DNA of 64,000 nucleotides from Methanomassiliicoccales archaeon (GTDB taxonomy: Archaea > Thermoplasmatota > Thermoplasmata > RBG-16-68-12 > SOIM01), in the NCBI GenBank assembly GCA_004377185.1, contig SOIM01000058.1, positions 67,828 to 131,827 on the forward strand. The letters run 5' to 3'. The notes under the pieces are model-generated. The model did not search any database. It was given only the letters and a program-made list of their open reading frames with translations, and had not been told where the DNA came from. This document shows, in pieces, positions 1 through 36,641 of the stretch. How positions within the stretch are numbered: the stretch's first letter is position 1; every line of letters begins with the position of its first letter. Position numbers and translations under genes: made by a program.

Positions 1-1862
1 ACCATTTCGTTGGCACACACACCGCACCCGTTGCAGAGGGCAGGGTCTATCTCGATCACATCCTCCTCCATGCGGAAAGCAGGGCAACCGAACAGGTTCA
101 TGCACAGCTGGCATTGGGTACAAATATCTTGGTCAATCTGATACTTGGCTATCTTCTTCCCTTTCTTCCTCTTCTTTCTAACGTCAAGCAATATGCACGG
201 ATGCCTTGCGACTACCACGGACACGCCTTTCGTCTTCACAGCTTTCTCCAGGGCTTTCACGAGGGCGTCTAGGTCAAGAGCGTCCACGACTGCAACGGTG
301 TCAACTCCGCAGGCCTTCGCCACATCTTCTATCAAGATCTTCCTGGTGTCCTCTCCCATCGCTGTCATTCCCACCCCGGGGTGGGTTTGGAACCCGGTCA
401 TTGCAGTGGTGGCATTGTCCAATACCAGAACATTGATGTCCGCCTTGTTGTAGACCGCGTTGAGCAGAGGGGGAATCCCTGAATGGAAGAATGTGGAATC
501 GCCGATTGTGCACACGATGCGATTATCTATGACCTTTGAAAGACCGGTTGAAATTCCAATACTGGATCCCATGCAGAAGTTGGTGTCAACGGCATTTAGA
601 GGGCTCTGGTAACCAAGTGTATAACAACCGATGTCCGAGGGTTTAACGATGCCTCCCTTCTTCTTCAACTTCAGGTTCTTTTCAACGACATTGATCGCAA
701 AGAAAGCGGTTCTATGACCGCAACCCGGACAAAGCACTGGCGGTCTTGGAGGAATGAGAGCCTGGGCCTCCTTCCAGATTCTGTTTGCCTTCCCAAAATA
801 TGATGGAGTCTTCCGACCCAGGAACTTGCTGAGACCAACGGCAACCTCTCTGGGACCCATCTCACCTGCCTTTGGAAGGATGTCCTTTCCGTGAATTTCG
901 GTATCCAAGGACAGCTCATGCGCGATGCTCCTCAGACATGTCTCCACAAATGCCTCCACTTCCTCCACTACAATTACTTTCTCATTGGCTGAAAGGAACC
1001 GCTTAATCTTCTTTCTGGGAAGCGGGTAAGGTGTTCCGATCCTAATCAGTCCGACCTTCTTGCCCAGACCCAAAGCCTTGAACGCCTCCCTGACCACATT
1101 ATGGGTCACGCCACAGGAGATCACACCGAATTCGCCATCACCCTTGGAAATGATCTTGTTGAAGGGGAGCTTCTCGACTTCTTTCTTTATCTTCTCCATT
1201 CTTTCTATGAGTTCAAGCCTCATTCTCCTGGCATTGGCCGGAAGGTTGACCCATCGTTCTGGAATGCGCTGGAACTGTCCCTTTCTCTTTGTCTTTGTCA
1301 CAGGGCCAAGAGTGATGTCCGCTGAAGAATGACCGATTCTTGTGGTTGATCTGAAGAGAACTGGCTGGCCCCATTTCTCAGAACATTCCAGGGCGGCCTT
1401 TGCCATCTCATGAGCGCCTTTAGGTCCAGGGGGTTCGAAAATCGGTAGGTAAGCTTCCCTGGCGAATAGACGGTTGTCCTGTTCGGTGTGAGAGCTGTGC
1501 ATTCCTACGTCATCCGCAGAGACAAGGACTATGCCGCCGACTGTACCCATGTAGGTGAATGCCTGGAAAGGTTCAGATGCAACGTTCACACCCACGCCTT
1601 TCATGGAAACCACAGAGCGCAGACCGCTCATGGCAGCGGAAATGGCGACTTCGGCAGCGACCTTCTCGTTCGTGGACCATTCGGCATATATCCCGTATTT
1701 CTCGGCAACAGAGAGAAGAGTGAACAGGATCTCAGAAGCAGGAGTACCTGGGTAAGAAGAAGCGACTTGTATTCCGCCTTCGATGAAACCTCTCGCGATG
1801 GCTTCGTTCCCAAGAAGAAGGGTTCTCTGACCCGACCGACCTGCCACGTTTGGGATTGCCAT
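1..1862 (-). CDS. iorA: Indolepyruvate:ferredoxin oxidoreductase alpha subunit (IorA-like 2-oxoacid:ferredoxin oxidoreductase); C-terminus runs off the window 5' edge
   Basis: Hand translation of the minus strand from ATG (complement of 1860-1862): MAIPNVAGRSGQRTLLLGNEAIARGFIEGGIQVASSYPGTPASEI... (IorA N-terminal TPP-enzyme signature). The frame is open to position 3 and encodes CTQCQLCMNLFGCPAF and CNGCGVCANEM 4Fe-4S motifs near the window edge. SD GGGGGTTAGGAGG upstream. Not in the ORF track because it is edge-truncated. Confidence 0.8.
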   Translation of the reverse strand, partial: MAIPNVAGRSGQRTLLLGNEAIARGFIEGGIQVASSYPGTPASEILFTLLSVAEKYGIYAEWSTNEKVAAEVAISAAMSGLRSVVSMKGVGVNVASEPFQAFTYMGTVGGIVLVSADDVGMHSSHTEQDNRLFAREAYLPIFEPPGPKGAHEMAKAALECSEKWGQPVLFRSTTRIGHSSADITLGPVTKTKRKGQFQRIPERWVNLPANARRMRLELIERMEKIKKEVEKLPFNKIISKGDGEFGVISCGVTHNVVREAFKALGLGKKVGLIRIGTPYPLPRKKIKRFLSANEKVIVVEEVEAFVETCLRSIAHELSLDTEIHGKDILPKAGEMGPREVAVGLSKFLGRKTPSYFGKANRIWKEAQALIPPRPPVLCPGCGHRTAFFAINVVEKNLKLKKKGGIVKPSDIGCYTLGYQSPLNAVDTNFCMGSSIGISTGLSKVIDNRIVCTIGDSTFFHSGIPPLLNAVYNKADINVLVLDNATTAMTGFQTHPGVGMTAMGEDTRKILIEDVAKACGVDTVAVVDALDLDALVKALEKAVKTKGVSVVVARHPCILLDVRKKRKKGKKIAKYQIDQDICTQCQLCMNLFGCPAFRMEEDVIEIDPALCNGCGVCANEM

Positions 1863-1968
1863 CTCTCCTCCTAACCCCCTTCCAGTTAGCCATTTCCTAT
1901 GACAACCAATGGAATACGAACTCTTGATTTAGACTTTTGGTAGGGTCAAAGAAAACGTCGAATAATAT

Positions 1969-2466
1969 TCAGTCAACCCAAAATCTGCGCAGACAGACCT
2001 CGTCCCCATTGGGTATTGATTTCACCGTCTTCCACTTGACGTTCGTCCCAAGCTCCTTGTTAATGTCAGCAACAAAGGTTTCCAACCACTTATCACAGCC
2101 AGCCTGATCCTGATCTAATTTGTCCAACCTCTGATGCCACTCAAACCACGGACATCCAACATGCTGTGCGAACGCCTCCTTCTCATCCTTTCCTTCAATC
2201 AACTCTGCGTCCTCACCCATGGACTGGCTGCTGAAAACAAAGTTCTCTGCAATCTGCCTAGGAAGCGACTTATCAGGATCAATATGCTTCAGATACCCCT
2301 TCGCCGTATCGTGCCCGACAATCTCCCAAAACTTGAGAACCAAATCCATTTCACTTACATCTGGACAAAGCTCTTTCGCAGCTCTCAACCACTCGAAATG
2401 GGACGCCCTTTGTATCTGGCTGAGCATGTTGAACTTCTTCTCTATCGGTATCTCCAATTCAAACAC
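1969..2466 (-). CDS. Hypothetical small Cys-containing protein (possible ATC-hydrolase-like fold); function unknown
   Basis: 165-aa ORF packed between iorA and the OYE-like gene in the same operon. Contains VGCPWFEW...AGCDKW. No confident family assignment. Confidence 0.5.
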   Translation of the reverse strand: MFELEIPIEKKFNMLSQIQRASHFEWLRAAKELCPDVSEMDLVLKFWEIVGHDTAKGYLKHIDPDKSLPRQIAENFVFSSQSMGEDAELIEGKDEKEAFAQHVGCPWFEWHQRLDKLDQDQAGCDKWLETFVADINKELGTNVKWKTVKSIPNGDEVCLRRFWVD

Positions 2467-2467
2467 C

Positions 2468-4441
2468 CTAGATCCTCATACCCGTGATGTACCCTTCCCT
2501 GAGTGCAAGTGTCATGTTCCTCGGTGCGGTTGCATCACCAATCATAATAATCTCCTCACAGAAGTCGTACAGTGAAGCAAACATCGCGTCCTCGGAGACC
2601 ATCACGGCAATCGCCACCGTGTCAGCTGGAATTGTCTTTTCTCCCTCGGGACCTATGAATCTGACACCATCGTCAGTTATCTCTTTCACCTTGGAGCTGG
2701 TGTACTGCTCCACATTCCCTTCCCTCAACCTCTTCATGTACCGCCACCGATAGGAGGCGTCTATGTCCATTCCCAGTTTCTTCATCTCCTCGATGATGGA
2801 TATCTTGTGGCCGCCTTTGTGTACAAGGAACTGGGCCGTAGAGACCCCCATGGCTGATCCTCCGACGACTACCACTCTCTCTCCGACGTCTACTCTCCCC
2901 TCGATAAGGTCATGACAGTTGACCACGTGTTTCTTGTCCGCTCCCGGAAGGTTCTCTGCCTTTGGGGAAGCACCTGTTGCCATTACTATCACGTCAGGTG
3001 TCATAGCTCCGGTGTGAGGTTTGGGGAATATCCTTGGGGTTGCCTGGGTATTGAGTTCAATCTTGACTCCGAGCTTCTTGCATTGGGCTTCGAGGTAGTT
3101 GATGGGACGCATCAGTTCGTCATCGCCGTACGGTCCCTTTGATGCTGTGAAGGCTTGTCCTCCAATGTGGTCCTCCTTCTCGTAGACGGTAACATCGTGA
3201 CCCTTTTGGGCTGCCACGACAGCGCATTGCAGACCGCCTGGTCCAGCACCAAGTATCACAACCTTTCTCTTCTGCTTTGCAGGCTTGAAACCGTAGTACC
3301 CCCATTCCCCTTCCCCCTCGTGCCCGAGGGTGGGTCTGACCATACACAGCAGAAGTTGATCCCGGAAGAGCCTTGTCAAGCAGAGATTGCACGCAGTGCA
3401 TGGAATGATATCCTCCTGCCGGTCCTCGGCAATCTTGTTCGGAAGAGCTGGATCCGCTATCATCGGCCTGCATGCTTCCCAGAAATCCAGGTTCCCAGCG
3501 GCTATCGCCTCCTCTGGGTGTTCGGGTACGAACAAACGGTACGCCATCACGACCGGAGCCTTGACATGCTTCTTGACCCGCTCAGCAATGTAGAGCCAGC
3601 TTCCCATTTCGCAATCTCTCGTAATGACCGAAACAGGTGATTCCTGCCAACCGGCAGTGACGCTGTGAAAATCAACTCCCAACTCATCTGCGATCTTTAT
3701 CGACTCCAAGCATTCCTCGGGCGTGTTCCCTCCTCGGTCGTCAATCAACTCCTCCGCGCACAGCCTTATGCCAACGGGGAAGTCATTTCCGACCTCTTTC
3801 CTAACTCCTTTCAAGATATCAATCATGAACTTCGATCGCCCGCGGATATCCCCTCCGTACTCGTCCGTCCTTGTGTTGGTGAACTTGGAAAGGAAATTGG
3901 CTATCAGATAACCCACGATACCGGAAATCTCCATCATGTCGTACCCGGCTTCCACAATCCTCCTCGCACCATCGATGTGTTCCTGTACGCACTGCTGGAT
4001 ATCATCAACTGACATCTCTCTGACTGGGTGGAACAGCGGGATCTTCTGTTCTACGGCCGATGGCCCAACACAATACTCCAAGCCGACGCCACCATACCTA
4101 CCGCAGTGCATGAGTTGAGCGCAGGACAGTGCATCGTTCTCCCGAATGACATCAGCGATCTTCTTCAGACCAGGAATGTACTTGTCATCCCAGATTCCCG
4201 CCATTCCCACGTATCCTCTGGACTCACCTTTTTCGTCCGTGTAAGCTCCTTGAGTTGTGACAATCCCTGAACCACCTTTCGCCTGGGCTTCCATGTAAGC
4301 GACTTCCTTGTCCGTTACGAATCCATCCCTGTCACAGAAATTGGTCTCGGTAGACGCGTACTTGATCCTGTTCTTGGCCTCCAGTTTCCCGATTCTTCCT
4401 GGGCTGAAAATGTGCGGGTATTTCTCCTCCCCTGGTCTCAT
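2468..4441 (-). CDS. Old Yellow Enzyme-type FMN oxidoreductase fused to an FAD/NAD(P)-binding domain; 2,4-dienoyl-CoA reductase / 2-enoate reductase family with a 4Fe-4S site
   Basis: N-terminus PHIFSPGRIGKLEAKNRI (OYE TIM barrel). Central CTACNLCLTRL...C Fe-S motif typical of FadH/enoate reductases. C-terminal GAGPGGL Rossmann motif. Start placed at M7 (ATG 4441), preceded by GGGGAGGT SD; the upstream M1 lies inside that SD. Confidence 0.85.
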   Translation of the reverse strand: MRPGEEKYPHIFSPGRIGKLEAKNRIKYASTETNFCDRDGFVTDKEVAYMEAQAKGGSGIVTTQGAYTDEKGESRGYVGMAGIWDDKYIPGLKKIADVIRENDALSCAQLMHCGRYGGVGLEYCVGPSAVEQKIPLFHPVREMSVDDIQQCVQEHIDGARRIVEAGYDMMEISGIVGYLIANFLSKFTNTRTDEYGGDIRGRSKFMIDILKGVRKEVGNDFPVGIRLCAEELIDDRGGNTPEECLESIKIADELGVDFHSVTAGWQESPVSVITRDCEMGSWLYIAERVKKHVKAPVVMAYRLFVPEHPEEAIAAGNLDFWEACRPMIADPALPNKIAEDRQEDIIPCTACNLCLTRLFRDQLLLCMVRPTLGHEGEGEWGYYGFKPAKQKRKVVILGAGPGGLQCAVVAAQKGHDVTVYEKEDHIGGQAFTASKGPYGDDELMRPINYLEAQCKKLGVKIELNTQATPRIFPKPHTGAMTPDVIVMATGASPKAENLPGADKKHVVNCHDLIEGRVDVGERVVVVGGSAMGVSTAQFLVHKGGHKISIIEEMKKLGMDIDASYRWRYMKRLREGNVEQYTSSKVKEITDDGVRFIGPEGEKTIPADTVAIAVMVSEDAMFASLYDFCEEIIMIGDATAPRNMTLALREGYITGMRI

Positions 4442-4495
4442 GTTACCTCCCCTTCTCACCTTGCTGAAAGCGAAAGTTACGGATAATATTATCCT

Positions 4496-4723
4496 TCAAT
4501 CCTCAGATTTCTTTGGCCTTGTGTAGATGACCTTGATGGTCTCTTCATAACCCGCTATGCACTCGCGACATTCCTCGTCATTCTCTGTGTCAAAGGGTTC
4601 CAGTCGGACCTCAAATCCTAACGATTCGTACATTTCAACGGACTCGCTGAGCCTCGGTTCAGTAGCGGAGAACATTCTGGTCCAACCCTCTTTTTCCAGT
4701 TCTTCCTTCTTTGATTCGCTCAT
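4496..4723 (-). CDS. Small acidic hypothetical protein with a CxxC pair
   Basis: 78-aa ORF, 75 aa from ATG 4723. It lies in the same frame as the 832-aa oxidoreductase upstream, separated only by its TGA stop. It fills the gap before the OYE-like gene. No recognisable family. Confidence 0.4.
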   Translation of the reverse strand: MSESKKEELEKEGWTRMFSATEPRLSESVEMYESLGFEVRLEPFDTENDEECRECIAGYEETIKVIYTRPKKSED

Positions 4724-4732
4724 GCCTATCAC

Positions 4733-7231
4733 TCAGAACAAGTCGTCCAGTTCATCATTCCCTGCTGGAAGCTTTCCGTGAGCTTGTAGGAACTGTTGTA
4801 TCAGCTCGCTCTCCCTCTTGGTGTACATCTTGTCCTCTTCCCAGAGGAAGAACTTGGCATTCTCCCTTGTCTGAAGTTGCTCCTTCAGGGCCTGCTGCAT
4901 GTTCATTACGCCTGAGATAAAGACAATCATCTTGCTTTCGTCCAGAAGTTGGAAAACGCCTTCAGTGTCCGGTACTTCAGCTATGTTCTCCTCGGTTAAT
5001 GGTAGCCATTTCTCAGGAGGCAGAGGATTGCATCCAAGAGTTAGTCTAAGATTGCACCTCAAGCACCGTTTCGCTTCTTCCACTGCGGACGCCTCGTCAT
5101 ATCCGCGCTCGATCTGGTCGAATCCTTTCGTCCTCTCCTCAAGCGGCAGCACCGGCATCTTCACTCGGGGTTTGTCTGCAAAACCCTCTTCCTTTCCGAG
5201 ATATGGGTCTGGATCCTCCTTCTCCAGAAGCACCTCTTCCAATTCTCCGTCCCCACCAAGGAACCTGTCCATCGACATGGCGGCTGCTCGACCAAGGGCA
5301 ATGGCTTCGATGACGGAAGCAGGTCCACTGACAACTTCTCCTCCTGCGAACACGCGGGCTATGTTAGTCTGGTGGGTCCTCTTGTTAACGGTAATCCCGG
5401 GTCCCGTTGTTACGACACCGCTACCTTCCAGGGCTGACAAATCCGTGGATTGGCCTATTGCCAGTAGTATCATATCTGTGTCGATTGAGGTCGTTTCAGA
5501 TTCGTCATATTTCGGATTGAACCTGCCGTCCTCGTCAAAGACAGATGTACAGCGTTTCAGCTCGATTCCTGTGATCTGGCCATCGCCTCCGATTATCCTC
5601 TTCGGCCCCCACGAAACGTTGATCTTCACGCCTTCCTCCATAGCTTCTTTGATCTCATGTTCGAAGGCTGGCATTTCCTCCCTGGACTCCAGGCAGGCAA
5701 GCTGGACTTCCTTCGCACCAAGGCGAATAGCGGTCAATGCAACATCGATGGCTACGTTTCCACCCCCGATCACGACCACCCTTTCCGCCACCTGGACATC
5801 CTTTCCCATTCTAACATCTTTCAGGAAATCCAATCCCCAGAGAACTCCTGGAATATCAGAACCCTCAAGCGGGATCCTCTTGCTAAGCTGTGCACCTACT
5901 CCAATGTAAATGGCGTCATATCCCTGGTTCTTCAAATCCTCGAAACTCAGGTCCCTCCCGATTGCAGTGTTGGTCTTGAACTCCACTCCGAACTCTCCGA
6001 TCGCATCGATGTCCTTCTGAAGAACCTCTTTGGGCAACCGGTATTCGGGAAAAGCGTATCTCATCATTCCCCCCAGCTCTGGAAGGGCTTCGTAAACAGT
6101 TGCGGAATGGCCCTTTCTCTGCAGGTAATAGGCCGCGGACAGGCCGGATGGTCCAGAACCTATCACAGCCACCTTTTTTCCGGTTGGTGCAGGCGTCTTG
6201 ATGAACGACTTCCAAGCACCAGTGTCCTGCTCGGCAGCGAATCTTTTCAAGGCACATATGGCGATCGGCTCGTTCACCTCGTTCCTGGTGCACTCCGTCT
6301 CGCAAGGATGGAAGCATACGTTCCCCAGTGAATAGACAATAGGGGTGACTTCCCTTACGACTGCGGCCGCTTCAGCGAACTTCCCCTGTGCTATGAGATG
6401 GTTGATCCTGGGTACGTCCGTGGCGACTGGACATTCTCCGATGCATGGAACCAGGTCCTTCTCCCTGTCCGAGATTATTCTCATGTCTGTCAACGCACCG
6501 GTGGGACAGACTTCCACACACGCGCCACAGAATTTGCAGTTGGATTCCTTCAAGGTGGGACCGATGGTGCCCACTCGGAATTCTCCATCCTGATATGTCA
6601 AAGAAAGAGCGCCCACTCCTCTCAGGTCATTGCACGCTCTTACACACCTAGTACAGCCAATACAGATATTGTAGTCCCTCTTGAATAGAGGTTCGTCTTC
6701 CACTACTGGCCTATCCTTTGGCAGGTAGCGCGGTGTGTCCTCCCTGATGCCCACATACTCCGCTACCTTCTGCAGCTCACACCTTCCAAGCTCGGGACAG
6801 CACCTCTCGTTCACAGGCACGTTCAAGGAACATGGTTCTCTACTGCAGCCTTCTCTCTCCGCGCAAAGCAAACACGCATGAGGATGGTCCTTCAGAATCG
6901 CCATCAAGTGCTCTTTCCGTTTCTCCTGGACATCGTTTGTGTTGGTGTTAACCACCATGCCTTCACTGGCGACGGTGGCACAAGACTGCTGAAGTTCATC
7001 CATTCCTTGAATCTGAACGAGACACAATCTGCATCCTTCATACTCTCCAGCCTGGCCCTCGATCTTCTCACTTCCCCAGTAGATGCATTCTCCGCCTTTC
7101 AGACCCTTGGCAGCGGGAAGATTAGGATGAGAACACAATGTTGGAATGTAGATATCCGCAGACCTGGCTGCATCCAGAATGGTCGTGTTCTCGGGAACCT
7201 CTACTGAGACATCATCAATCGTCAACTTCAC
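4733..7231 (-). CDS. Fe-S flavoprotein fusion: NuoG/HndD-like N-terminal 2Fe-2S plus 4Fe-4S domains joined to a GltD-like (glutamate synthase small-subunit type) NAD(P)H:FAD oxidoreductase
   Basis: 832 aa. N-terminal 2Fe-2S-type Cys pattern, followed by HxxxC and CxxCxxCxxxCP clusters. GltD N-terminal helical ferredoxin CIGECP...CFHPCETEC. Two GxGxxG sites (VIGSGPSGL, VIGGGNVA). GTG start with GGTGGGG SD. Confidence 0.8.
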   Translation of the reverse strand: MKLTIDDVSVEVPENTTILDAARSADIYIPTLCSHPNLPAAKGLKGGECIYWGSEKIEGQAGEYEGCRLCLVQIQGMDELQQSCATVASEGMVVNTNTNDVQEKRKEHLMAILKDHPHACLLCAEREGCSREPCSLNVPVNERCCPELGRCELQKVAEYVGIREDTPRYLPKDRPVVEDEPLFKRDYNICIGCTRCVRACNDLRGVGALSLTYQDGEFRVGTIGPTLKESNCKFCGACVEVCPTGALTDMRIISDREKDLVPCIGECPVATDVPRINHLIAQGKFAEAAAVVREVTPIVYSLGNVCFHPCETECTRNEVNEPIAICALKRFAAEQDTGAWKSFIKTPAPTGKKVAVIGSGPSGLSAAYYLQRKGHSATVYEALPELGGMMRYAFPEYRLPKEVLQKDIDAIGEFGVEFKTNTAIGRDLSFEDLKNQGYDAIYIGVGAQLSKRIPLEGSDIPGVLWGLDFLKDVRMGKDVQVAERVVVIGGGNVAIDVALTAIRLGAKEVQLACLESREEMPAFEHEIKEAMEEGVKINVSWGPKRIIGGDGQITGIELKRCTSVFDEDGRFNPKYDESETTSIDTDMILLAIGQSTDLSALEGSGVVTTGPGITVNKRTHQTNIARVFAGGEVVSGPASVIEAIALGRAAAMSMDRFLGGDGELEEVLLEKEDPDPYLGKEEGFADKPRVKMPVLPLEERTKGFDQIERGYDEASAVEEAKRCLRCNLRLTLGCNPLPPEKWLPLTEENIAEVPDTEGVFQLLDESKMIVFISGVMNMQQALKEQLQTRENAKFFLWEEDKMYTKRESELIQQFLQAHGKLPAGNDELDDLF

Positions 7232-7278
7232 AGTATCCCCACCTTTGACGGAAACCGATGTTTCCTATTCAATCAGAG

Positions 7279-7566
7279 TTACCAAGAATGGGTGATTGCA
7301 CAGGGCTCGCAGGCCTCTATGCATGGTTCTGTCTTTGACTTATCCACTGGTTTGCACGGTCCGCAGGTGTACTTGATCTTCTTCCTTTCCGCTTCTATGA
7401 CCAGGGGTACTTCTTTCTCAGAGAGTGGGTCAAACGGGTCTGCGACCAATGCAAGAATCTTCGGCGGACAGACCTCAGCACATTTGCCGCAGCTGTCGCA
7501 TTTATCGGTATCGATGGTTATGAAGTACTCTCCCGATCCGTCCTTGTACCCGTAGTTGGCAAGCAT
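7279..7566 (-). CDS. 2x[4Fe-4S] ferredoxin (candidate electron donor of the adjacent ATP-dependent reductase/dehydratase)
   Basis: Internal ATG at 7566 with GGGGTGA SD gives 95 aa with CDSCGKCAEVCP and CGPC...CIEACEPC motifs. The longer track ORF would overlap the upstream ATPase gene, so the short form is preferred. Confidence 0.75.
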   Translation of the reverse strand: MLANYGYKDGSGEYFITIDTDKCDSCGKCAEVCPPKILALVADPFDPLSEKEVPLVIEAERKKIKYTCGPCKPVDKSKTEPCIEACEPCAITHSW

Positions 7567-7571
7567 CTGTC

Positions 7572-8453
7572 TCACCCCGCTTTCTGTTGCTTTTCCCACA
7601 GGGCCTTCGCGAAGAGTGCACCACCAAGGGCCCCTGCTATCTGAGTATCGAGCTTCACGTCGAGAGCCGTGATACCAAGTTCCTTCTCGATTCTCTTCAC
7701 CACACCGATGTTCTTCGCAATACCACCAGTGATCGCGAACTCCTTCTCTACCCCAAGGCGTTCCAGAAGTGTGACCACCCTGTGAGCCATTGCGGAGCAA
7801 TAGGCTGCAAGAACCTTGTTCTTTGGCCATCCTTCTCTGAGTAATCCAGTTGCCTCGGACTTGGCGAACACAACGCATGTGCTACTAACTGGCGGGGGCT
7901 CCTTCTCGACCTTGAACGACTCCTCGCCGACCTTCTCGATGTGTATGCCCAGCAAATCGGCGAAGACCTCCATTCCCCTTCCAGTGCCAGCGGCACACTT
8001 GTCGTTCATGAGGAAAGCGGTGACCTTGCCCCGCTCGTCCGTTCTGATGGCCTTGCAATCCTGTCCGCCCATATCCAGAACGGTTCTCACCGATGGGCCG
8101 TACATGTAGTTGGCTCCACGACCGTGGCAAGCGATCTCGGTTATTGCCCTGTCCGCGAAAGGTACATTGACCCTGCCGTATCCGGTGCCCACCACGTATT
8201 GAATCTTCTCTATTTCTAGACCAGTATCCTCAAGGGCCCAGTTCATCGCGTTCTTCGCACTGTCTGGACTGCTAGAACCAGTTCGCATGTTACTGTAGGC
8301 GTAAAGTTTGCCATCGAGGATAATGACAGCCTGAGAACTGACCGAACCCACGTCCACGCCGGCTGTTATGAATTCAGCGTCATTCCAATCCATCTCTGGG
8401 TCCTTCCAGTTGTACTCCTTCCATCTCCAATATTCAGAATCTGTGGTTGCCAT
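7572..8453 (-). CDS. BadF/BadG/BcrA/BcrD-family ATPase (acyl-CoA reductase/dehydratase activating subunit), copy 2
   Basis: 293 aa. ASKHA fold ATPase with VGTGYGR, DMGGQDCKAI, DKCAAGTG and CVVFAKSE motifs (cluster-bridging Cys). GGGGGT SD. Confidence 0.85.
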   Translation of the reverse strand: MATTDSEYWRWKEYNWKDPEMDWNDAEFITAGVDVGSVSSQAVIILDGKLYAYSNMRTGSSSPDSAKNAMNWALEDTGLEIEKIQYVVGTGYGRVNVPFADRAITEIACHGRGANYMYGPSVRTVLDMGGQDCKAIRTDERGKVTAFLMNDKCAAGTGRGMEVFADLLGIHIEKVGEESFKVEKEPPPVSSTCVVFAKSEATGLLREGWPKNKVLAAYCSAMAHRVVTLLERLGVEKEFAITGGIAKNIGVVKRIEKELGITALDVKLDTQIAGALGGALFAKALWEKQQKAG

Positions 8454-8456
8454 CTT

Positions 8457-9236
8457 CTAACCCCCTTCTGCCCTCTCCCTTGCTGCAAGAGCTGCCCCGA
8501 GGGCACCTACGTAATCCGGATCCTCAGGTACGAGAAGGTCCATGTTGAGGTCTCTCTTCAGAGATTCTACGAATCCCACATTCCTCGCTAATCCTCCAAT
8601 CAAGGCCACATCTTTTTCGATGGACAGTCTTCTTGTCATGGAAGAGATTCTGCTAGCCATTGCGTCATGGATTGCTCTTGCTATGTCCTGCTTTGCAGTC
8701 TTCGCATGAACGAGTGTGACGACCTCGGACTCGGCAAAAACAGCACACTGCGCGTTCATGGGAACGGCATTTTCTGACTTGAGGGACAGAGGACCCATCT
8801 CCTCGAGAGGGATTTCCAGGGCTCTGGACATCGCTTCTGTGAAGGCTCCCGCACCAGCAGCACATTTTTCGTTCACCACGAAATCCATCACTCTTCCTCT
8901 TTCGTCACATCTAAGGGCCTTTCCTTCCTCGGCACCGACTTCGATTATCGTCCTTGAGTTGGGAAAGAGAAATGTCGCTCCTTTTGCCGCGGCTCCAACC
9001 TGTGTTATCTCGTCATTCCTAAAAGGAACCTCTTTCTTGCCCACGCCGGTAGAAGTTATGTGCTTTATCTCATCTTTCGAAATCCCACCGCTCTCCAGGG
9101 CATCGTTGAAAGTTCTCTCGGCCGATTCGGTCAGGTTGAATCCACTAAGTGAAATGCTCTTTGATTTGATTTGTCCGTCGTCCAGGACAACGACCTTCAC
9201 GTACTTGGCGCCCATATCTATTCCTGCAACATACAT
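8457..9236 (-). CDS. BadF/BadG/BcrA/BcrD-family ATPase (activating subunit), copy 1
   Basis: Start at M8 (ATG 9236) with a perfect GGAGGTG SD. Motifs YVAGIDMGAKYVK, EKCAAGAG, CAVFAESE. Distinct from copy 2, which implies a heterodimeric ATPase. Confidence 0.85.
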   Translation of the reverse strand: MYVAGIDMGAKYVKVVVLDDGQIKSKSISLSGFNLTESAERTFNDALESGGISKDEIKHITSTGVGKKEVPFRNDEITQVGAAAKGATFLFPNSRTIIEVGAEEGKALRCDERGRVMDFVVNEKCAAGAGAFTEAMSRALEIPLEEMGPLSLKSENAVPMNAQCAVFAESEVVTLVHAKTAKQDIARAIHDAMASRISSMTRRLSIEKDVALIGGLARNVGFVESLKRDLNMDLLVPEDPDYVGALGAALAARERAEGG

Positions 9237-9260
9237 TTCCTCACACCTCCTTGACAATCC

Positions 9261-10574
9261 TCAATCCACCAATTTCTTCACTTCAAGAGCCTCCATGAAA
9301 GCATCCATTTTTCCCATCGTGCCGGCCTCGTCGAATTCCCTTTCATCTCCCATGTTTCCTTCGAACACCAACACTGGGAAACCGGCCTTCTGGAGTGCCA
9401 GTCTGTTCTCTGCTATGCCCAGGCTCAGTCCCTCGCAACCTCGATTGTAGTGCAACATGACACCATTGACGTGCCATTCTCTGGCTATCCTTATCATCAT
9501 TTCGCTCTTCAACTGGGGAGAGTAGAAGTGCTGCCATTCTGGTTTTGCAAGATTCCATATCACCAGTTCTCTCAATGCATCCTCCCTGGTGTTTATCGTG
9601 ATTCCTCTCTCCATAGGAGTGGTCTTTGGTTCCCAGGTTCCGTCCTCCTTCACTTCCCATGCCCCAGCTAGACCGAAGGAGTATAGAGAACCTATCGAGA
9701 TGCATCCGAATTTCTCGAGATACCTGAACACGCTCAAGAACCCCCACGGGGGTTGGGTATCACTCATCACCCGGGCCTGCTCGTTCCCAACAGCTGCAAT
9801 TCCTCGCTTTACTCTATCCTTCATTTCTTCATACAGGGTATCGTAGAAATCCGCAAACTCTTTCTTGGCCCTGCTCAGAACAGCGAAGACGTACAGGGAA
9901 TACATTGTTTTCTCATCGAGAGGGGCTGGGATGTTCTTGTTGAGTTCGCAGATCTTCGCCCAGGAGTTAGTCGATCGGAACTCGGTTTTCACAGCTTCGA
10001 TCAACTTCTTGTCGTCATAGGTTCTTCCGGTCGTTTTCTCCAGCCAATCGATACCGTCCATGAGCTGCCCGACAATGTACTGAATTCTGTTCTCATCAAT
10101 CGCCTCGAAGGGTCCGACTGCCACGTCTACCGAATAAGCTGGAATATCACCCTCCAACTCCGAAACGACCTGGTACCACTTGGCATGACTGCAACAAATA
10201 TGATCCTGCCAAACGAAATCAGCCTTTGGAAACTCCCCACCGAAGGCGTACTTGTTAAGAATGATTGAACCCCAATAATTCCTCATGTAGGAGCACAAGT
10301 CCCTTGCGTAGCCGGCAGCCTCCGTTGCTTCCAGGCATTGAAGTGAGAATTCTCTGTTGAACGCAATTGATGCGGCGTAGGGCTCCCCTGTTAGAGGATA
10401 GACATCATCACCTAGACCGTATGGCACAGCATCGAAGGACCAAGCGCCCCCGCACCATCTAATTCCACCCTCTTCGTGAGCTTTGGCGTAATCCTCATAA
10501 TACTTCATTCTCAATCTTTTTGCTTCTTTCCAGCATTTCAAGGGCTCTGTCGGGTATTTTGTTTCCGTTGCCAT
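9261..10574 (-). CDS. 2-hydroxyacyl-CoA dehydratase / benzoyl-CoA reductase catalytic subunit (HgdB/BcrB/BadE family)
   Basis: 437 aa with HgdB/BcrB-family fold signatures. GGAGGTG SD. Tightly coupled to the neighbouring genes. Confidence 0.8.
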
Positions 10575-10586
10575 TTGTTCACCTCC

Positions 10587-11711
10587 TCAGAAAAGATCCT
10601 CCCCTTCAAGCATCTCCAGAAATGCCTCCACGCGTGTCTTGAACTGTCCAACTGCTACCGTCACATCCAGTTCCAAGAACAACGTTTGTATGCCATTCGA
10701 TTCCAGTGTCTTTTTTATGGAAGGAATGTCCAACTCATGAGGGTCGCAGAACTTCTGCTGTAGCAGTATCGCACCGCTCACATTCCAATCCTTTGCAATG
10801 TTGAGAATATGGGGAATCCTAGTCCTTACCTCCCAGTCCTTGCTCGGGCAGGGAGGTCTCTGCACGTACCTCTCAGCTATTGCCAGGAGCCTGTCCCCGT
10901 TCGGCTGGACATCATTCCAAAAATACCTGCTGCCAGTGCAGTGGTCATCAGCAACGATTGTCGAACCGCAGCCTTCCACCATATCTACGAATTTCGTGTC
11001 GTCATTCTCGCTGCCCAGAATCATCAGCCTTTGACCCGTTGATCTCTCCAGCTTTCTCCCCTGAAGTTCCTTGATCGTCTCCTCAAGAATGTCACTGTGG
11101 TCGTTCTTCTCGATCGTCTGACTTGAAACGGCCATATACATTGCTTCCAGACCTGTCATCGGCGGGTCCGCCTCTTTCCGAAGCTCGTAGGCCTCTCGCA
11201 TCAACCGCCTGTTCTTGTTCATCATCTCTATTCCGCGATCCAGGTCTTCGTCCGTAATCTCTTTTTCCGTCCAATCCTCAACTGCCTTCTTGAACCTCTC
11301 GAGTTCGCCTTTCAGATAGGGGACGGCCCGAGGACTCTGCACCTTGTTGGGCATGGGAAGGTAGTAGCTGAATGGAACGGGTATGTGCATCTCCCAGCTG
11401 GTGTAGGCTTGCCTGATGTGCAGGCACGATTGTGCGATCATTAAACCATCAAGATAGTCGTATCTCCCCTTCAATCCTTGAGCCAGACAGTCCCTGCAGA
11501 ACGGGCAGAACATACCGAAGATATGCGGTTCGGTTACGTCCTGCGGCTCATGACTGCCCAGAATGCGTACCGGCAACACGTCCGCGGCCAGGAGTATCTC
11601 CTCCGGCACATACGTGCAGAAATAGCCCATCACCTTTCCACCAGTCTTCTCCTTCCATTCCTTAGCGTACTCGTGTTTTGCATCGTACCATTCTTTGAAC
11701 ATCTCAATCAT
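10587..11711 (-). CDS. 2-hydroxyacyl-CoA dehydratase / benzoyl-CoA reductase catalytic subunit (HgdA/BcrC/BadD family)
   Basis: Start at internal ATG 11711 (M100 of the track ORF) with a GGAGAGGAGGATGAGG SD, overlapping the GNAT stop by ATGA. 375 aa, HgdA-like Cys-containing fold. Confidence 0.8.
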   Translation of the reverse strand: MIEMFKEWYDAKHEYAKEWKEKTGGKVMGYFCTYVPEEILLAADVLPVRILGSHEPQDVTEPHIFGMFCPFCRDCLAQGLKGRYDYLDGLMIAQSCLHIRQAYTSWEMHIPVPFSYYLPMPNKVQSPRAVPYLKGELERFKKAVEDWTEKEITDEDLDRGIEMMNKNRRLMREAYELRKEADPPMTGLEAMYMAVSSQTIEKNDHSDILEETIKELQGRKLERSTGQRLMILGSENDDTKFVDMVEGCGSTIVADDHCTGSRYFWNDVQPNGDRLLAIAERYVQRPPCPSKDWEVRTRIPHILNIAKDWNVSGAILLQQKFCDPHELDIPSIKKTLESNGIQTLFLELDVTVAVGQFKTRVEAFLEMLEGEDLF

Positions 11712-12148
11712 TTCCTCATCCTCCTCTCCAGGTTGATGAATTCGCTCCTTTCGAAGCCTATTGATTTGAAGAATGCAAGCAGGTCGCTCGAATCCCATCT
11801 CACGGCTGTGAAAATCCTGTTTATCCCCTTTGAGTTGAAACCTCTGAGCATGGCCTTTCCGAGCTTCTTGCCAATCCCTTGACCCATGTAGTTGGGATCG
11901 ATACCCACATCCACGAGCCAGCCGCTCTTGGTGACACCGAAATCCAGCGTCTTGGTCTCCCCTATGATGAAGCCCACTACCTTCTTGCTGAATGTTGCCA
12001 CAAAACATTGATTATCACTCTCGAGCAGACGAATGGCGATCTCGTGCTGCCAGAACTTGGGCACCTTCTTCTTGGTTATGGATTCTCTTATGGCTATGGT
12101 TGCCGGGATGTCTTTCTCCCTCATCCTTCTTATTTCTACAGTGCTCAT
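11708..12148 (-). CDS. GNAT-family N-acetyltransferase
   Basis: 146 aa, GNAT-family fold. GAGGTGGGGG SD. Confidence 0.8.
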   Translation of the reverse strand: MSTVEIRRMREKDIPATIAIRESITKKKVPKFWQHEIAIRLLESDNQCFVATFSKKVVGFIIGETKTLDFGVTKSGWLVDVGIDPNYMGQGIGKKLGKAMLRGFNSKGINRIFTAVRWDSSDLLAFFKSIGFERSEFINLERRMRK

Positions 12149-12157
12149 TCCCCCACC

Positions 12158-12301
12158 TCATTCAAGTCTTATGATCTTGACCTTCTTGCCAACCCAGTCA
12201 GGCGGGAGGTATACCCTTCCGCTGTTTCCAGCCCGTTTGACTTCCTTCTCGATCATTTCCTGTCCGAAAACCTCGAACTTGGAATCTTTTGCTCTTGCCA
12301 T
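12158..12301 (-). CDS. AbrB/MazE-like swapped-hairpin small DNA-binding protein (DUF2080-like), first gene of the operon
   Basis: 47-aa ORF, below the track cutoff: MARAKDSKFEVFGQEMIEKEVKRAGNSGRVYLPPDWVGKKVKIIRLE. Carries the GNSGRVYLP..VGKKV hallmark of AbrB/SpoVT-type barrels. An AT-rich promoter lies immediately upstream. Confidence 0.5.
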   Translation of the reverse strand: MARAKDSKFEVFGQEMIEKEVKRAGNSGRVYLPPDWVGKKVKIIRLE

Positions 12302-12420
12302 GCCTACCCCTAGATTTAGTTATAATACCGTTGCAATATCATTATAAAGTAACTACATTATAATTGTTTCCCATCAAGCAACTAGAGGAGATCAACTCGT
12401 ATTTGTACAGCATTCCATCT
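12302..12420 (-). promoter_or_regulatory. AT-rich promoter region (TATA-like boxes) of the minus-strand reductase operon
   Basis: ttataataccgttgcaatatcattataaagtaactacattataatt directly upstream of the first operon gene. The only long AT-rich stretch before a 12-kb run of coupled genes. Confidence 0.3.
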
Positions 12421-12497
12421 AGCGTATCTTCCTTAGGAAAATCGGAGATGTGAGATGAACCGTCAGTGGTTTGGGATATGCCGGGTGTTCTGGTTTC

Positions 12498-15400
12498 TCA
12501 GCCTTCCACATCTTCCAGCATTTCGGGCCCCTTGGGTTCTTCTTCTGGAGGGGGTGGTGTCTCTTCCTCCGCAGGTGCTTCGGCTGGTTCTTCCGCAGGT
12601 GCTTCGGTTGGTTCTTCCGCAGGTGCTTCGGTTGGTGCCTCTGCCGGTTCTTCCGGCGGTGGCGGGAGTTCCTCTTCGGCAGGGGGTACCTCTGCAACCT
12701 TCGGCTTTCTCCTCAGCATAAGGCCAACCACAGCAACCACCACTACGATGACGATTATCAAGACAAGTAGCCACCAGTATTCCTCCAAGAAGGACGGAGC
12801 AGCTTTCTCTGCTACTGTGATAGTGCCCTGGACCTCGTTCCAATTACCATTCTCATCGCGAGCGGAGATCTTGTAGTCGTAGTCTCCCGCCTCGTCAAAG
12901 GAGAATTCGTACCCGTACACACCTCCACCCAAGTCATCCATAGATCTGTTGGACAGAACGATTAGGGCATCTGAAACCCTGACAATCTCAATACGTACCC
13001 TGTCCACACCGCTCGCATCGTCGACAGTTGCTTCGAATGTGACAGTTTCCCCGGCCTTTGGTTTCTCTGGGTCAACCGTAACATCGATTGTGGGAGGCGT
13101 CAGCTCACGAATATCGAAGCCTCCAGAAGCTGAAGCCCAATTGTCGCTCGTATCGTTCGCCCAGATTACGAAAGTGTACTCTCCTTCGATATCGAAGTCG
13201 ACTTCATAGTAGTATTCGTCGTCGCCAATGTCATACCTCATTGAGTAGTTTCCCACCTCCTCGCCGTCCGGGTCGGTGATGTTAACCCACACTTCGTCGA
13301 CTTGAACATTGTCCTGCACTGTTGCGGAAATCCTTACGTCCTCGCCCGGGGCTTGCGGATCGGGTTCTGCTTTTTGATCCGTTATTGTCGGACTTTGGGT
13401 ATCAGGTGGCGCACGAATTATTAAATCAACACAGGCGGTAAATGATACGTTGTGGTTAGGCACTTCATCCCATCCATGGACGCATACTTGATACGTTCCA
13501 AGCGCCATACCAGAGGTATAGATTGTGACGTTCACGTCCTCAGAAGGTCCGTCGAACGCCCCATCCAACGGGAACATAGGTGTGGTTGTGAGCCAATCTC
13601 TCTCGATGGTGTAGTTCGCTCCAGCGATATTCGACCCTAGTGCCGGATTGTCGTCGATCGTAGCGTTCAGGTAGACTGTTGTACCGGGCCAGACAGTGGC
13701 GGAAATCGGGTCCTCATTCAAAAGAACGCTCAGGACGTATGGAGGTTTATCATCCACGGAAGAGATGTTCAGTATGGCACATGCACCAATCGAATTGTAG
13801 TTCGGGACATCATCCCAACCGTACACGCAAACCTCATAGTCAGCATCCGCCCAACCAGTGGTGTCGATGAAACTTGGGGTAGAGGTCACGTCTTCGGTGA
13901 AGGTATCAAACGCACCATCCGCGGCCTGCAACGGTACACTGGTGAGCCAATCGCCATCTATTGTGTAGTTTGCTCCTTGGATTGCGGTACTTCCTCGACC
14001 TCCAGTGTCGTCCACCGTTGCATTGACAAAAACTGAAGTATCAGGCATAACAGAAACTGTTGGCTGACCATTCAGTGTAACGCCTGCCACGGCAGGGTCG
14101 ATATCATCAAGAACGATTATCTGAACTGCAGGTGCCGAGTCATTATAGTTCATATCTACGTCCCAAGCGTGCACATAGTAATCGAAGACACCAACTGAAG
14201 TAGGCACAAGAATGTTGGCGGTCACATTCTCCGTGGGTTGGTCGAACGACATGTCCACTGGGAACATATCAATCCCTGGCCAAAAATCAACCAGAGGCGT
14301 TGTGTAGTTGGCCCCCCAGACTACTGAAGAACCGGTAGTGGTATCATCTATTGTGGCGTTCAGAGTGGCTGTGGCCGGAAGTGTGGACAGCAAGAAAACT
14401 GCAGACGGTCCACCATCTATCTCGATATTGCTGATTTGTGGTGCCAGATCATCCAGGACAGTGACAGATGTGCATGAACCCGTGGTGTTGTAGTTCGGAA
14501 CTATGTCCTGGCCGTACACACAGTAGATTGTTGTTCCAACTGGAGGTGTGATCACCGCGGTAACATCTTCGGTGGGCGAATCAAACATGCCATCCGCTGG
14601 ATTCATGAGAGTGCTGGTCGCCCAGTCTTGAACACCGATCGTATAGTTCGCACCACCAATGGGCAAGTTGCCCGTTCCGCTATCATCGATTGTCGCGTTC
14701 AAATATATGACTGGAGGAATATTGGAGAGGTCGTAGATTGGATTCATTTGACCATTAATCCTCACATTCAGTACCTGAGGGGCGTTCGTGTCAGGAGCAC
14801 CTTGGCCGGCAGTCAGATTGACCCACACGTAGTCAATCGTATCGAACGGATCCGGGTCCATCAGAGGGTCGACCACGAAATTCGGAGTGCCTATGCCACT
14901 TATAGAAACATTGACAACTGGGTCATAGCCCCAAAGATTGAAGCCCGCGGGCAACAGCCCATTGAGAATGTTCCTCTCCGCATCAGTATCATAGGTCGTA
15001 TTTATCTCAAGTCTGTGCGTGCTGGCAACGGGTATGGTTGTGTTGGAAGTGAAATTCGCTACCATGAGACCCGAAGGAGGATTTGGGGATACGACCGAAC
15101 CCAACAAATCAAAGATGAATGAGTCTGTGCCTGGGACCAGATCATAATGGATTCCATCCACATAGAATTGGTCAATTGTGGTCGAGAAAATCGGGGGCGC
15201 AGCGCCACCAGACATAAAAAGGAAAACATCCAATTCAGTCTGGTTGACAAAGCCGTCCCTGTTCCCGACCACCATGTCTATCATGAACCTCATCGATTGG
15301 TTGTCCACCCCCATTTCAAACCTCGTATCGGAAACAACGTTATCCCAGTCGGTCATCACCAGGGTCGTATTCATTAGGTCAGCAACTGGCAATTCAAGCG

Positions 15401-17546: not shown

Positions 17547-17716
17547 CCACGCTTCCTCCAAACCTTTTCCCACGTTGTCAAATGCTTTATCTATTAAAAT
17601 CTTGGCTTCTCAATTCCCATTTGAATAACTGACCATTCTCGCATATCTCGCAGCGAAATCGCTTTTCCAAAACAATAAATATCGCTGTTGGCTTACGCCC
17701 GCATGGGAGGAGTGAT

Positions 17717-21792: not shown

Positions 21793-21854
21793 ACCGTCAG
21801 AGTAGATGATAGCGTAGTCTGCCAGTCCTCACACCTCTCGGGTTCTGCTGGGTA

Positions 21855-22286
21855 CTACAAACGGATTGCGTATATAACTCTGTCACCCTCCAATTCTTTC
21901 AAAACGACGCTCACGTCCTGACCTACGCTGATGTCCTCTTCCTTCGCCTCGTCCAGCCATCCGAGAAGTCTTCCTCCGCCCTCCAGTTCAACCATGCAAA
22001 TCGTGTAGGGCACAACATCCTCGAAACCGGTTGGCCCGACATGTATTGTGGTGTATGTGACGATCTTACCCTTGGACTCCATGTCCATCCATTCCACGTC
22101 ACTGGACATGCACTGATCACAATCGGCCCTGGGAGGAAAATGAAGCGCACCACAGCTCTTGCACTTGGTCCCTGCCAACTTCCCCTTCTCCAAATAATCC
22201 AGGTATTCCTTCGTTTTTGTTGCGGTAACAAAGCTAACCTTACCCAACTCCAGTGTCATCTCATCACCTCGAATATATGTTGACAA
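21855..22286 (-). CDS. DUF35 Zn-ribbon/OB-fold protein (thiolase partner)
   Basis: CKSCGALHFPPRADCDQC rubredoxin-like knuckle plus OB fold. Directly downstream of, and overlapping, the thiolase gene as in archaeal thiolase-DUF35 pairs. Start could be M1 or M10. Confidence 0.75.
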   Translation of the reverse strand: MSTYIRGDEMTLELGKVSFVTATKTKEYLDYLEKGKLAGTKCKSCGALHFPPRADCDQCMSSDVEWMDMESKGKIVTYTTIHVGPTGFEDVVPYTICMVELEGGGRLLGWLDEAKEEDISVGQDVSVVLKELEGDRVIYAIRL

Positions 22287-24165: not shown

Positions 24166-24251
24166 TCCTACCCCCTCGACCTAAGAAATTCTTTATAGAC
24201 AATCACTGATAATGCGCTACCTTTATTAAAGATTTTGAGGAGCGGGAAGAA

Positions 24252-33065: not shown

Positions 33066-33105
33066 ACCCCCGAGCTCTCGACGGTCAGAGGAGAGGAATC
33101 CAATC

Positions 33106-36599: not shown

Positions 36600-36641
36600 C
36601 AATCGAAGCCCCTGTCCCATTGCAGATAGCACAAAACGATA

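Follow-up and report, generated by a model that had tools for sequence, protein, structure and literature searches.

The window analysed here is a 64,000-nucleotide stretch of contig SOIM01000058.1 (positions 67,828 to 131,827) from the Methanomassiliicoccales archaeon assembly GCA_004377185.1, and its first ~12.3 kb carry a string of minus-strand genes (Table 1) that is a composite of three joined modules, probably of different ancestry. These modules are an ATP-dependent class I Bzd-type benzoyl-CoA reductase with its own ferredoxin and a BzdV-like Fe-S flavoprotein, a bacterial-type pair made up of a three-domain OYE and a small V4R-fold partner (p165), and IorA, whose neighbours point rather to the start of a module for aromatic amino-acid oxidation. 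The overall explanation, with the electron flow and the role of the OYE/V4R pair proposed below, is held with moderate confidence; the families, their conserved order and the division into three modules are shown by the sequences, and the electron flow, the co-transcription and a CoA thioester as substrate are inferred. An earlier sequence-only reading had described five genes in positions 1 to 7231, the distal half of the string (an 832-aa fusion, a 75-aa open reading frame (ORF), an OYE, a small protein and IorA), and all five were recovered on the minus strand by ORF listing and translation.

Genes upstream of the 832-aa fusion lay on the same strand with gaps of 3-47 nt, the ferredoxin gene standing 5 nt past bzdQ. 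Along the whole string the intergenic gaps were 0-54 nt, except for 106 nt ahead of iorA, and the genes may be co-transcribed. TATA-like boxes were located at 12325-12348, 24-47 nt upstream of the DUF2080 ORF that heads the string; this ORF encodes 47 aa and fell under the size limit of the ORF list. The spacer between the acidic small ORF (p78) and the OYE gene (4460-4495) contained a perfect 7-bp palindrome (GGATAAT/ATTATCC), which could be a hairpin or a regulator-binding site. The OYE ORF encodes 663 aa from a GTG at 4459; homologues begin at Met7, and the true start is therefore probably the ATG at 4441 (657 aa).

The identity of the reductase was determined by comparison to Pfam and NCBIfam models. 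Two HGD-D and two BcrAD_BadFG matches followed one another in the order N-O-P-Q (Pfam), and the NCBIfam equivalog cut-offs for BzdN, BzdO and BzdQ were all exceeded; no BzdP-specific NCBIfam model was matched by 8457-9257. The 2-hydroxyisocaproyl-CoA dehydratase models gave 152 bits for HadB, where 750 are required, and 198 bits for HadC, where 700 are required, and two different ATPase genes were present rather than a single activator gene. Because the bzd cut-offs were reached, HadB and HadC fell far below theirs and the two ATPases differ, the four-subunit enzyme is assigned by family models to the Bzd-type class I aryl-CoA reductases and not to the fld-type dehydratases. The sequence-only reading had left two routes side by side, and these scores uphold its benzoyl-CoA-type route and speak against its Clostridium sporogenes fld-like one.

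Directly after the reductase genes, the ferredoxin and the 832-aa fusion had been proposed as an electron supply, and they do correspond to the predicted BzdM/BzdV pair of bzd and thn clusters. Position and size of the ferredoxin were constant in seven other loci, with 53-79% identity across Thermoplasmata, Phycisphaerae, Bacteroidetes and Asgard loci. The fusion contained Fer2_4, NADH-G_4Fe-4S_3, Fer4_Nqo3/Fer4_7, Fer4_20, Pyr_redox_2 and a C-terminal DUF7508 (Pfam), corresponding to a NuoG/HoxU-like N-terminus (2Fe-2S, His-ligated 4Fe-4S and 2x 4Fe-4S) and a GltD/NfnA-like module (2x 4Fe-4S plus FAD/NAD(P)H). Against the PDB it scored 410 bits with 9bov, 394 with 9n5u (NfnA) and 380 with 8oh5_C, and just 234 with NfnI; by these scores the GltD part is closest to the NADPH-oxidising NfnA/StnC subunits of Bfu-type transhydrogenases (PMC11829005, PMC12018979, PMC10482914). 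Asgard archaea, Bathyarchaeia and Chloroflexi supplied thousands of full-length homologues that were 56-60% identical to it, and one of them, with 56% identity, is named "BzdV protein" by NCBI. In the loci examined the BzdV-like gene always followed bzdM; the designation BzdV-like refers to domains, gene position and this homologue's name. In Azoarcus, BzdM is the ferredoxin and BzdV a "putative" NADPH:ferredoxin oxidoreductase (PMC5658619). The trio of reductase, ferredoxin and BzdV has been described in deep-sea Chloroflexi (PMC5736913), in Hermodarchaeota (PMC8163825) and, in the thn operon, next to a tetrahydronaphthoyl-CoA reductase of bzd type (PMC6849830).

The p78 protein had no Pfam match, yet it belongs to an undescribed family of 567 cluster representatives (E<=1e-3) with the motif GW..F..EPRLSE.VE.Y..LGFEV.LEP...CxxC...IYTR, which has a CxxC and, besides, Trp, Tyr and Cys residues that are invariant. 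Its predicted alpha/beta fold had no significant structural neighbour. A p78 homologue near OYE-p165 in a Bacteroidota locus (L018, 12833-13003, minus strand) carried an in-frame stop and may be a pseudogene or a sequencing error. An acidic ...[DE][DE]DLF-COOH tail was common to the C-termini of BzdN (10587-10604) and the BzdV-like protein (4733-4756) and was kept in Thermoplasmata, Asgard, Phycisphaerae and Bacteroidetes loci (L002-L004, L061, L069, L082 and L083). Many p78-family proteins ended in DDLW, EDLF or DELF, and the BzdM-type ferredoxin always ended in ...A[IL][ST]HSW. The acidic DLF-type tails may be a shared docking motif.

Conservation of the string was assessed using tblastn of the window proteins against 81 loci. 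Three Thermoplasmata genomes (L002-L004) preserved the complete order GNAT-BzdN-O-P-Q-Fdx-BzdV-p78-OYE-p165-IorA, with proteins 69-93% identical to those of the window. Two Asgard contigs (L082 and L083) carried DUF2080-GNAT-HGD-D-HGD-D-BcrAD-BcrAD-Fdx(95 aa)-BzdV followed by a p78 homologue, with no OYE after it; Asgard loci with this module belong to Heimdall- and Promethearchaeota. Between Asgard and window proteins, the reductase and ferredoxin were 53-76% identical, BzdV 56-57% and p78 44-46%, and the GNAT ahead of bzdN was 69% identical in Thermoplasmata and 37-39% in Asgard loci. Judged by this conservation, DUF2080-GNAT-BzdNOPQ-BzdM-BzdV-like-p78 is an archaeal-type module. Class I reductase genes were previously reported in Thermoplasmatota (PMC9239135) and the reductase-ferredoxin-BzdV module in Asgard archaea (PMC8163825), so that the earlier description of the island as unusually complete for an archaeon was overstated. 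Weak GNAT homologues also flanked OYE in Syntrophaceae-type loci (L009, L011, L013, L015 and L071). Extra single HGD-D/BcrAD genes near the Asgard bzd modules (L082 12543-14601; L083 15086-15880 and 17421-18653; L084 4093-6438) look like separate dehydratase- or double-cubane-type systems.

The OYE protein was compared to solved structures, of which 2-naphthoyl-CoA reductase (NCR, 6qkg) was by far the closest (E=1e-157, 530 bits, 43% identity over 636 positions), FadH reaching 253 bits. The full-length alignment to 6qkg gave an FMN TIM barrel, a four-Cys [4Fe-4S] linker, an FAD domain and a second Rossmann domain. Its Fe-S motif reads C354-x2-C357-x2-C360-x11-C372, all four Cys being invariant in the family, and thus CxxCxxC-x11-C rather than the CxxCxxxC first described. 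The accompanying label of a 2,4-dienoyl-CoA/2-enoate reductase gave way on the same evidence: a FadH-like assignment was rejected on bit score and motif, and a FldZ-like one was dropped on the same grounds as not demonstrable. The best NCBIfam models (mycofactocin OYE2, BaiCD and bilirubin reductase) were all far under their cut-offs. Y83, Y184, C234, Q272, Y307, T268 and G270 were invariant in 28 family members. In NCR, Tyr197 is the proton donor, Y320/T280/G282 contact the enolate, H284 and Y82 activate the Tyr, and H123/R155/Y156 form a proton channel (PMC6502838). The proton donor corresponds to Y184 of the window protein, the thioester-enolate contacts to Y307, T268 and G270, and Y82 to Y83, all of them kept; NCR W459 aligned to E/L beside a gap. 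The OYE therefore probably acts on a CoA thioester, and by sequence it is an NCR-lineage (class III aryl-CoA reductase) enzyme without being a strict naphthoyl-CoA reductase.

A scan with the OYE alignment yielded 425 related loci among species-representative genomes. The nearest relatives (84% identity) were Thermoplasmata/"Methanomassiliicoccales" metagenome-assembled genomes. The others (54-63% identity) were all bacterial, from Syntrophomonadaceae, Syntrophaceae, Syntrophorhabdus, Thermodesulfobacteriota, Bacteroidota/Ignavibacteria, Planctomycetota, Aminicenantes and Latescibacterota, and the archaeal gene thus looks bacterially acquired.

The p165 gene lay directly 3' of the OYE gene in 33 of the 81 loci, across phyla. 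Its product gave a weak PF14196 match and nothing significant in Pfam; structure prediction gave a V4R/Bet3-like fold (predicted local distance difference test score 95.5), the fold of phenol-binding sensor domains. H102, C105, H111 and C124 were invariant in the family and C158 nearly so. The protein had been labelled a small Cys protein; the predicted fold rules out an Fe-S or ferredoxin-like protein, and p165 is best described as a predicted small-ligand-binding accessory protein, probably containing a metal.

The bacterial context of the OYE was characterized by clustering all ORFs of the loci (76 bacterial loci, 49 of them ≥ 12 kb). A small 2x[4Fe-4S] ferredoxin gene stood immediately after OYE in 38 of the 76, which speaks for a ferredoxin as electron donor of the enzyme. 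This private ferredoxin gene was absent where OYE sits inside a bzd operon (the window, L002-L004 and L061), and its absence suggests that BzdM serves OYE there. At least one of four classes of iaa-type gene (XDH-type Mo enzyme subunits, hydantoinase A/B, B12-dependent mutase and family III CoA-transferase) was carried by 26 of the 49 long loci, at least two by 17 and all four by six; these classes follow the composition of the Aromatoleum iaa operon. Frequent companions in the iaa-like loci were a FadB-type fusion, thiolase, acyl-CoA dehydrogenase, a TrpB-like protein, an aminotransferase and IorAB, and the TrpB-like, aminotransferase and IorAB genes recurred beside OYE in 19 of the 76 bacterial loci. 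The iaa pathway ends in 2-aminobenzoyl-CoA or benzoyl-CoA. Six acyl-CoA dehydrogenases encoded next to OYE (L028, L035, L038, L053, L064 and L076) had GGG in place of the catalytic YEG, and the window's own acyl-CoA dehydrogenases had FEG and YEG. GGG is a published signature of the benzylmalonyl-CoA dehydrogenase IaaF, and every relative of IaaF is encoded in an iaa operon (PMC8360864). Because iaa-type gene classes and GGG dehydrogenases adjoin it, the usual home of the OYE family is, as far as gene neighbourhood can tell, an iaa-like (anaerobic indoleacetate-type) operon. No XDH, hydantoinase, B12 mutase, family III CoA-transferase or IaaF-type dehydrogenase was found in the window or on the related contig L001 (10 kb beyond). 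OYE joins the Bzd operon only in Thermoplasmata, one Phycisphaerae genome and one Bacteroidetes genome. The Phycisphaerae locus (L061) had the window's exact order, BzdNOPQ-Fdx-BzdV-OYE-p165, with housekeeping genes on both flanks; in the Bacteroidetes locus (L069) a benzoyl-CoA reductase-Fdx-BzdV module was convergent to OYE-Fdx-VOC.

The region past the window edge was examined on L001 (JAUUVZ010000015.1), which also encodes the exact OYE protein and is 99.55% identical to window positions 1-4904. On this contig iorA stops 46 nt (~15 codons) outside the window. Behind it come IorB (PF01558, 203 aa, overlapping the iorA end), an aminotransferase, a Fer4_11 protein and AOR (aldehyde:ferredoxin oxidoreductase), and further on small ORFs, a ThiS-like protein and both subunits of a CoA-transferase. 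Both the IorA assignment and the predicted presence of IorB beyond the stretch were thus borne out. The suggested use of IorAB as a dedicated ferredoxin regenerator of the reductase was dropped, given the IorB, aminotransferase, Fer4_11 and AOR genes downstream and a gene inserted between p165 and iorA in two relatives. This gene order fits better with IorAB heading a module that oxidises aromatic amino acids.

In the proposed model, the class I reductase, its ferredoxin and the BzdV-like flavoprotein would make up the first module. The flavoprotein would exchange electrons with NADPH through its GltD/NfnA-like domain and hand them to BzdM along its NuoG-like cluster chain, with p78 accompanying BzdV. 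BzdM would feed the ATP-dependent reductase and, in this operon, OYE as well. In the second module, OYE would most likely take single electrons from ferredoxin (here BzdM) and, with FMN as hydride source and Tyr184 as proton donor, reduce a ring or conjugated C=C in an acyl-CoA thioester with close ties to benzoyl-CoA metabolism, candidates being cyclohexa-1,5-diene-1-carbonyl-CoA and a substituted benzoyl-CoA; p165 would bind a hydrophobic or aromatic ligand for it. The third module (IorAB, aminotransferase, Fer4_11 protein and AOR) would convert aromatic amino acids to arylacetyl-CoA and reduced ferredoxin.

Several observations weigh against this model. The Bzd equivalog scores are compatible with a related aryl-CoA substrate, the tetrahydronaphthoyl-CoA reductase also being annotated as bzd-type (PMC6849830), and no Dch, Had, Oah or badK/H/I equivalog was present in the window (NCBIfam), the crotonase at 17717-18670 falling under all cut-offs. 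Electron flow from NADPH to ferredoxin is uphill, and the direction of BzdV catalysis is therefore uncertain. Within the OYE, NCR residues H284, N247, R155 and Y156 are replaced by Q272, C234, L and F, and H123 falls in an insertion that the window protein lacks; because these NCR-specific residues are not conserved, naphthoyl-CoA is an unlikely substrate. OYE stood beside a reductase in just two of the 49 long bacterial loci (L061 and L069), most being iaa-like. A DUF7253 gene separated p165 from iorA in L002 (12615-14384) and L005 (12353-13765), and on L005 (CP070767.1, a complete chromosome) a 5'-truncated OYE (residues 116-663) at 10004-11647 had no reductase module upstream. The modules are thus separable with a boundary before iorA, and the truncation and insertions point to rearrangement at module borders. 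A sigma-70 promoter/terminator scan of 1-12600 gave counts at shuffle level, with a model that is not applicable to archaea.

The strongest competitor to this role for OYE, possible though on the doubtful side, is a cyclohexa-1,5-diene-1-carbonyl-CoA oxidoreductase of the Thauera type (DCO). Such an enzyme could re-aromatise the reductase product with O2 or another acceptor and so shield the oxygen-sensitive reductase, or it could reduce the dienoyl-CoA to cyclohex-1-ene-1-carbonyl-CoA for a BadK/BadH/BadI-like lower pathway. DCO reportedly has the same FMN/FAD/[4Fe-4S] architecture and the same size, and it is linked to benzoyl-CoA reductase. The OYE gene lies within bzd operons in three unrelated lineages, and the sole ring-type crotonase in the window (17717-18670) scored best against BadI (204 bits, under the cut-off of 468). 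The 61%-identical homologue P0176 is called a "putative 1,5-dienoyl-CoA oxidase", which is a submitter's unverified annotation. Most family members, however, occur in iaa-like operons without a reductase nearby, the conserved private ferredoxin and V4R partner are not among the features reported for DCO, and oxygen protection is a weak rationale for sediment anaerobes. The iaa-like neighbourhoods raise a different and quite unlikely candidate, namely that OYE/p165 is a ferredoxin-dependent reductase of a substituted benzoyl-CoA from an iaa-type route, deaminating for example 2-aminobenzoyl-CoA to benzoyl-CoA. Here the pair would bridge IorAB (indoleacetyl-CoA) and the benzoyl-CoA reductase, in keeping with the iaa-type flanks, the six adjoining dehydrogenases with the IaaF signature, the recurrent TrpB-like, aminotransferase and IorAB genes, and the V4R fold of p165; a neighbourhood cannot identify a reaction step, however, and no XDH, hydantoinase or mutase gene was present in the window or the 10 kb beyond.

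A further rival takes its pattern from anaerobic naphthalene degradation, with a bicyclic aryl-CoA reduced in two stages. OYE (like NCR and DHNCR) would reduce the first ring without ATP, and the Bzd-type enzyme (like tetrahydronaphthoyl-CoA reductase), with ferredoxin and the BzdV-like protein, the second. NCR is indeed the closest solved relative of OYE, and the thn operon has the same trio of bzd-type reductase, ferredoxin and BzdV-like protein; but the NCR-specific catalytic and proton-channel residues are lost, no UbiD-type carboxylase or naphthoate-CoA ligase was found in the window, and members of the OYE family occur widely in lineages and gene settings that have no tie to polycyclic aromatics, which makes this reading very improbable. 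The fld-like pathway named by the sequence-only reading (arylpyruvate oxidoreductase, phenyllactyl-CoA dehydratase plus activator, and FldZ-like enoate reductase) is hardly credible. IorAB and an aminotransferase are present, the HGD-D and BcrAD Pfam families are common to dehydratases and OYE falls within the broad 2-enoate-reductase superfamily. The equivalog scores and the two distinct ATPase genes given above nonetheless decide against it, as do the lack of an FldA-type CoA-transferase or phenyllactate dehydrogenase adjoining the string and the specificity of the BzdM/BzdV pair to aryl-CoA reductase clusters. A more speculative extension, to which we assign a low probability, is that the OYE/V4R pair is an undescribed ferredoxin-dependent reductase of a monocyclic aryl- or dienoyl-CoA, either a 2-aminobenzoyl-CoA deaminating enzyme or the dienoyl-CoA reductase of a cyclohex-1-ene route. 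Where it stands in a bzd operon, it would be coupled to the BzdM/BzdV electron module, and its exergonic reduction could lend driving force to NADPH-dependent ferredoxin reduction by the NfnA-like BzdV.

Coordinates of the string and of other features of the window are given in Table 1. The acyl-CoA dehydrogenases and Etf said to lie elsewhere in the window were located, Etf as an EtfA fragment. The operon is set apart from the rest of the window by the gene (12498-17573, minus strand) for a repeat-rich surface protein of 1691 aa, which has a transmembrane helix at its C-terminus and a tail rich in Pro, Glu and Ala; GC and AT skew switch sign inside this gene. The crotonase-fold protein at 17717-18670 (plus strand) has a C-terminal double-CxxC zinc-ribbon extension, matched BadI, MenB and Oah best, all under cut-offs, and is the sole candidate ring-hydrolase-type gene near the reductase. 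A beta-oxidation-like block at 20668-25888 encodes a histone-deacetylase-family protein, a DUF35/ChsH2-type OB-fold protein, a thiolase, an SDR and a two-subunit CoA-transferase. A second AOR (33055-34944) is followed by a poly-ferredoxin (34875-35393) and a convergent Pyr_redox_2 protein (35382-36632), whose best NCBIfam match was PadH (phenylglyoxylate dehydrogenase epsilon; 282 bits, under the cut-off of 475).

Table 1. Features of the gene string and of the rest of the window, with the matches used for their assignment
Feature	Position	Strand	Match or remark
DUF2080 ORF, 47 aa, head of the string	12158-12301	minus	PF09853, 30.2 bits (cut-off 21.5)
GNAT acetyltransferase, 146 aa	11708-12148	minus	Acetyltransf_1, E=8e-11
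BzdN-type reductase subunit, C-terminus ...EGEDLF	10587-11714	minus	TIGR03190, 507.9 bits (cut-off 453.8)
BzdO-type reductase subunit	9261-10574	minus	TIGR03191, 675.8 bits (cut-off 448.6)
BzdP-type ATPase subunit	8457-9257	minus	BcrAD_BadFG, E=9e-46; TIGR00241, 217 bits (cut-off 125)
BzdQ-type ATPase subunit	7572-8453	minus	TIGR03192, 446.8 bits (cut-off 380.2)
BzdM-type ferredoxin, 95 aa, C-terminus ...AITHSW	7279-7566	minus	Fer4 and Fer4_6
BzdV-like Fe-S flavoprotein, 832 aa, C-terminus ...DELDDLF	4733-7231	minus	Pfam and NCBIfam
p78, acidic small ORF	4496-4723	minus	75 aa from ATG; 78 aa from GTG at 4732
Three-domain OYE	2468-4459	minus	Oxidored_FMN, E=9e-59; Pyr_redox_2, E=1.5e-29 (Pfam)
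p165, 165 aa	1969-2466	minus	V4R/Bet3/H-NOX-fold; weak PF14196 match, nothing significant in Pfam
IorA	1-1862, runs past the window edge	minus	TIGR03336, 730.1 bits (cut-off 650.9)
Acyl-CoA dehydrogenase	31594-32733		
Acyl-CoA dehydrogenase	47858-48997		
EtfA fragment	63189-63998		

Anaerobic aromatic degradation in archaea rests nearly wholly on gene predictions, and the operon offers a compact, testable set of genes, for the reductase, its ferredoxin, the BzdV-type reductase and two small conserved proteins. Gene predictions published earlier already include the reductase-BzdM-BzdV module of archaea. What appears to be new, on sequence comparison, is the composite nature of the string, the NCR-lineage OYE with its conserved V4R partner and ferredoxin, the normal residence of the OYE pair in iaa-like operons, and p78 and DUF2080 as conserved members of the archaeal module. 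The OYE family is uncharacterised, spans 425 loci at 54-63% identity across phyla with an invariant active site, and is tied by context to both benzoyl-CoA reductase and iaa-type operons; knowing its substrate could fill a gap in benzoyl-CoA degradation or in the routes peripheral to it, and interest would rise if OYE were one of the missing reductases of the benzoyl-CoA network. The NfnA-like BzdV and the ...DDLF tails on BzdN and BzdV provide handles on ferredoxin regeneration for ATP-dependent ring reduction.

Among known systems, the string resembles the bzd clusters of Azoarcus/Aromatoleum and of Hermodarchaeota/Lokiarchaeota in its four Bzd-type subunits over equivalog cut-offs, with a ~95-aa ferredoxin right after bzdQ and then a GltD-type Fe-S flavoprotein, and the Asgard bzd loci share the DUF2080, GNAT and p78 genes as well. 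It differs from them in the appended OYE-p165 pair and iorAB, and it is without bzdWXY/dch-had-oah (hydratase, dehydrogenase and hydrolase) or a benzoate-CoA ligase. The BzdV-like protein shares with NfnA/StnC (9BOV, 9N5U and 8OH5) the GltD-like FAD/NADPH module with two [4Fe-4S], at ~380-410 bits over residues 260-730, but here the partner is a NuoG/HoxU-like N-terminus plus DUF7508 instead of a molybdopterin-like domain, and the string lacks the NuoE/F-type (BfuB/C) genes of Bfu-type transhydrogenases.

With NCR (6QKG), DHNCR and AprB/AprC, the OYE shares the four-part cofactor and domain layout and a likely ferredoxin electron donor, as in class III aryl-CoA reductases generally, and with NCR it shares full-length similarity, the proton-donor Tyr and the thioester-enolate contacts. 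Unlike NCR, it carries the four substitutions given above, lacks both the H123-containing and an 11-residue insertion, has a CxxCxxC Fe-S motif and has no Trp aligned to W459, which blocks the NADPH site in NCR; its V4R partner gene is conserved, and its context is iaa-like or bzd rather than naphthalene degradation. E. coli FadH (1PS9) has the same three-domain architecture and an acyl-CoA substrate, but it carries a CxxCxxxC motif and an NADPH site, the match is much weaker and no NCBIfam model of that class reaches its cut-off. Thauera aromatica DCO is described as a stand-alone, O2-using monomer, whereas strict anaerobes carry the present family, which is accompanied by a ferredoxin and by a partner of V4R fold. 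The third module resembles the IorAB peptide-fermentation module of Pyrococcus/Thermococcus, with IorA over its cut-off and IorB, aminotransferase and AOR adjoining, and differs from it in standing directly behind a benzoyl-CoA reductase operon.

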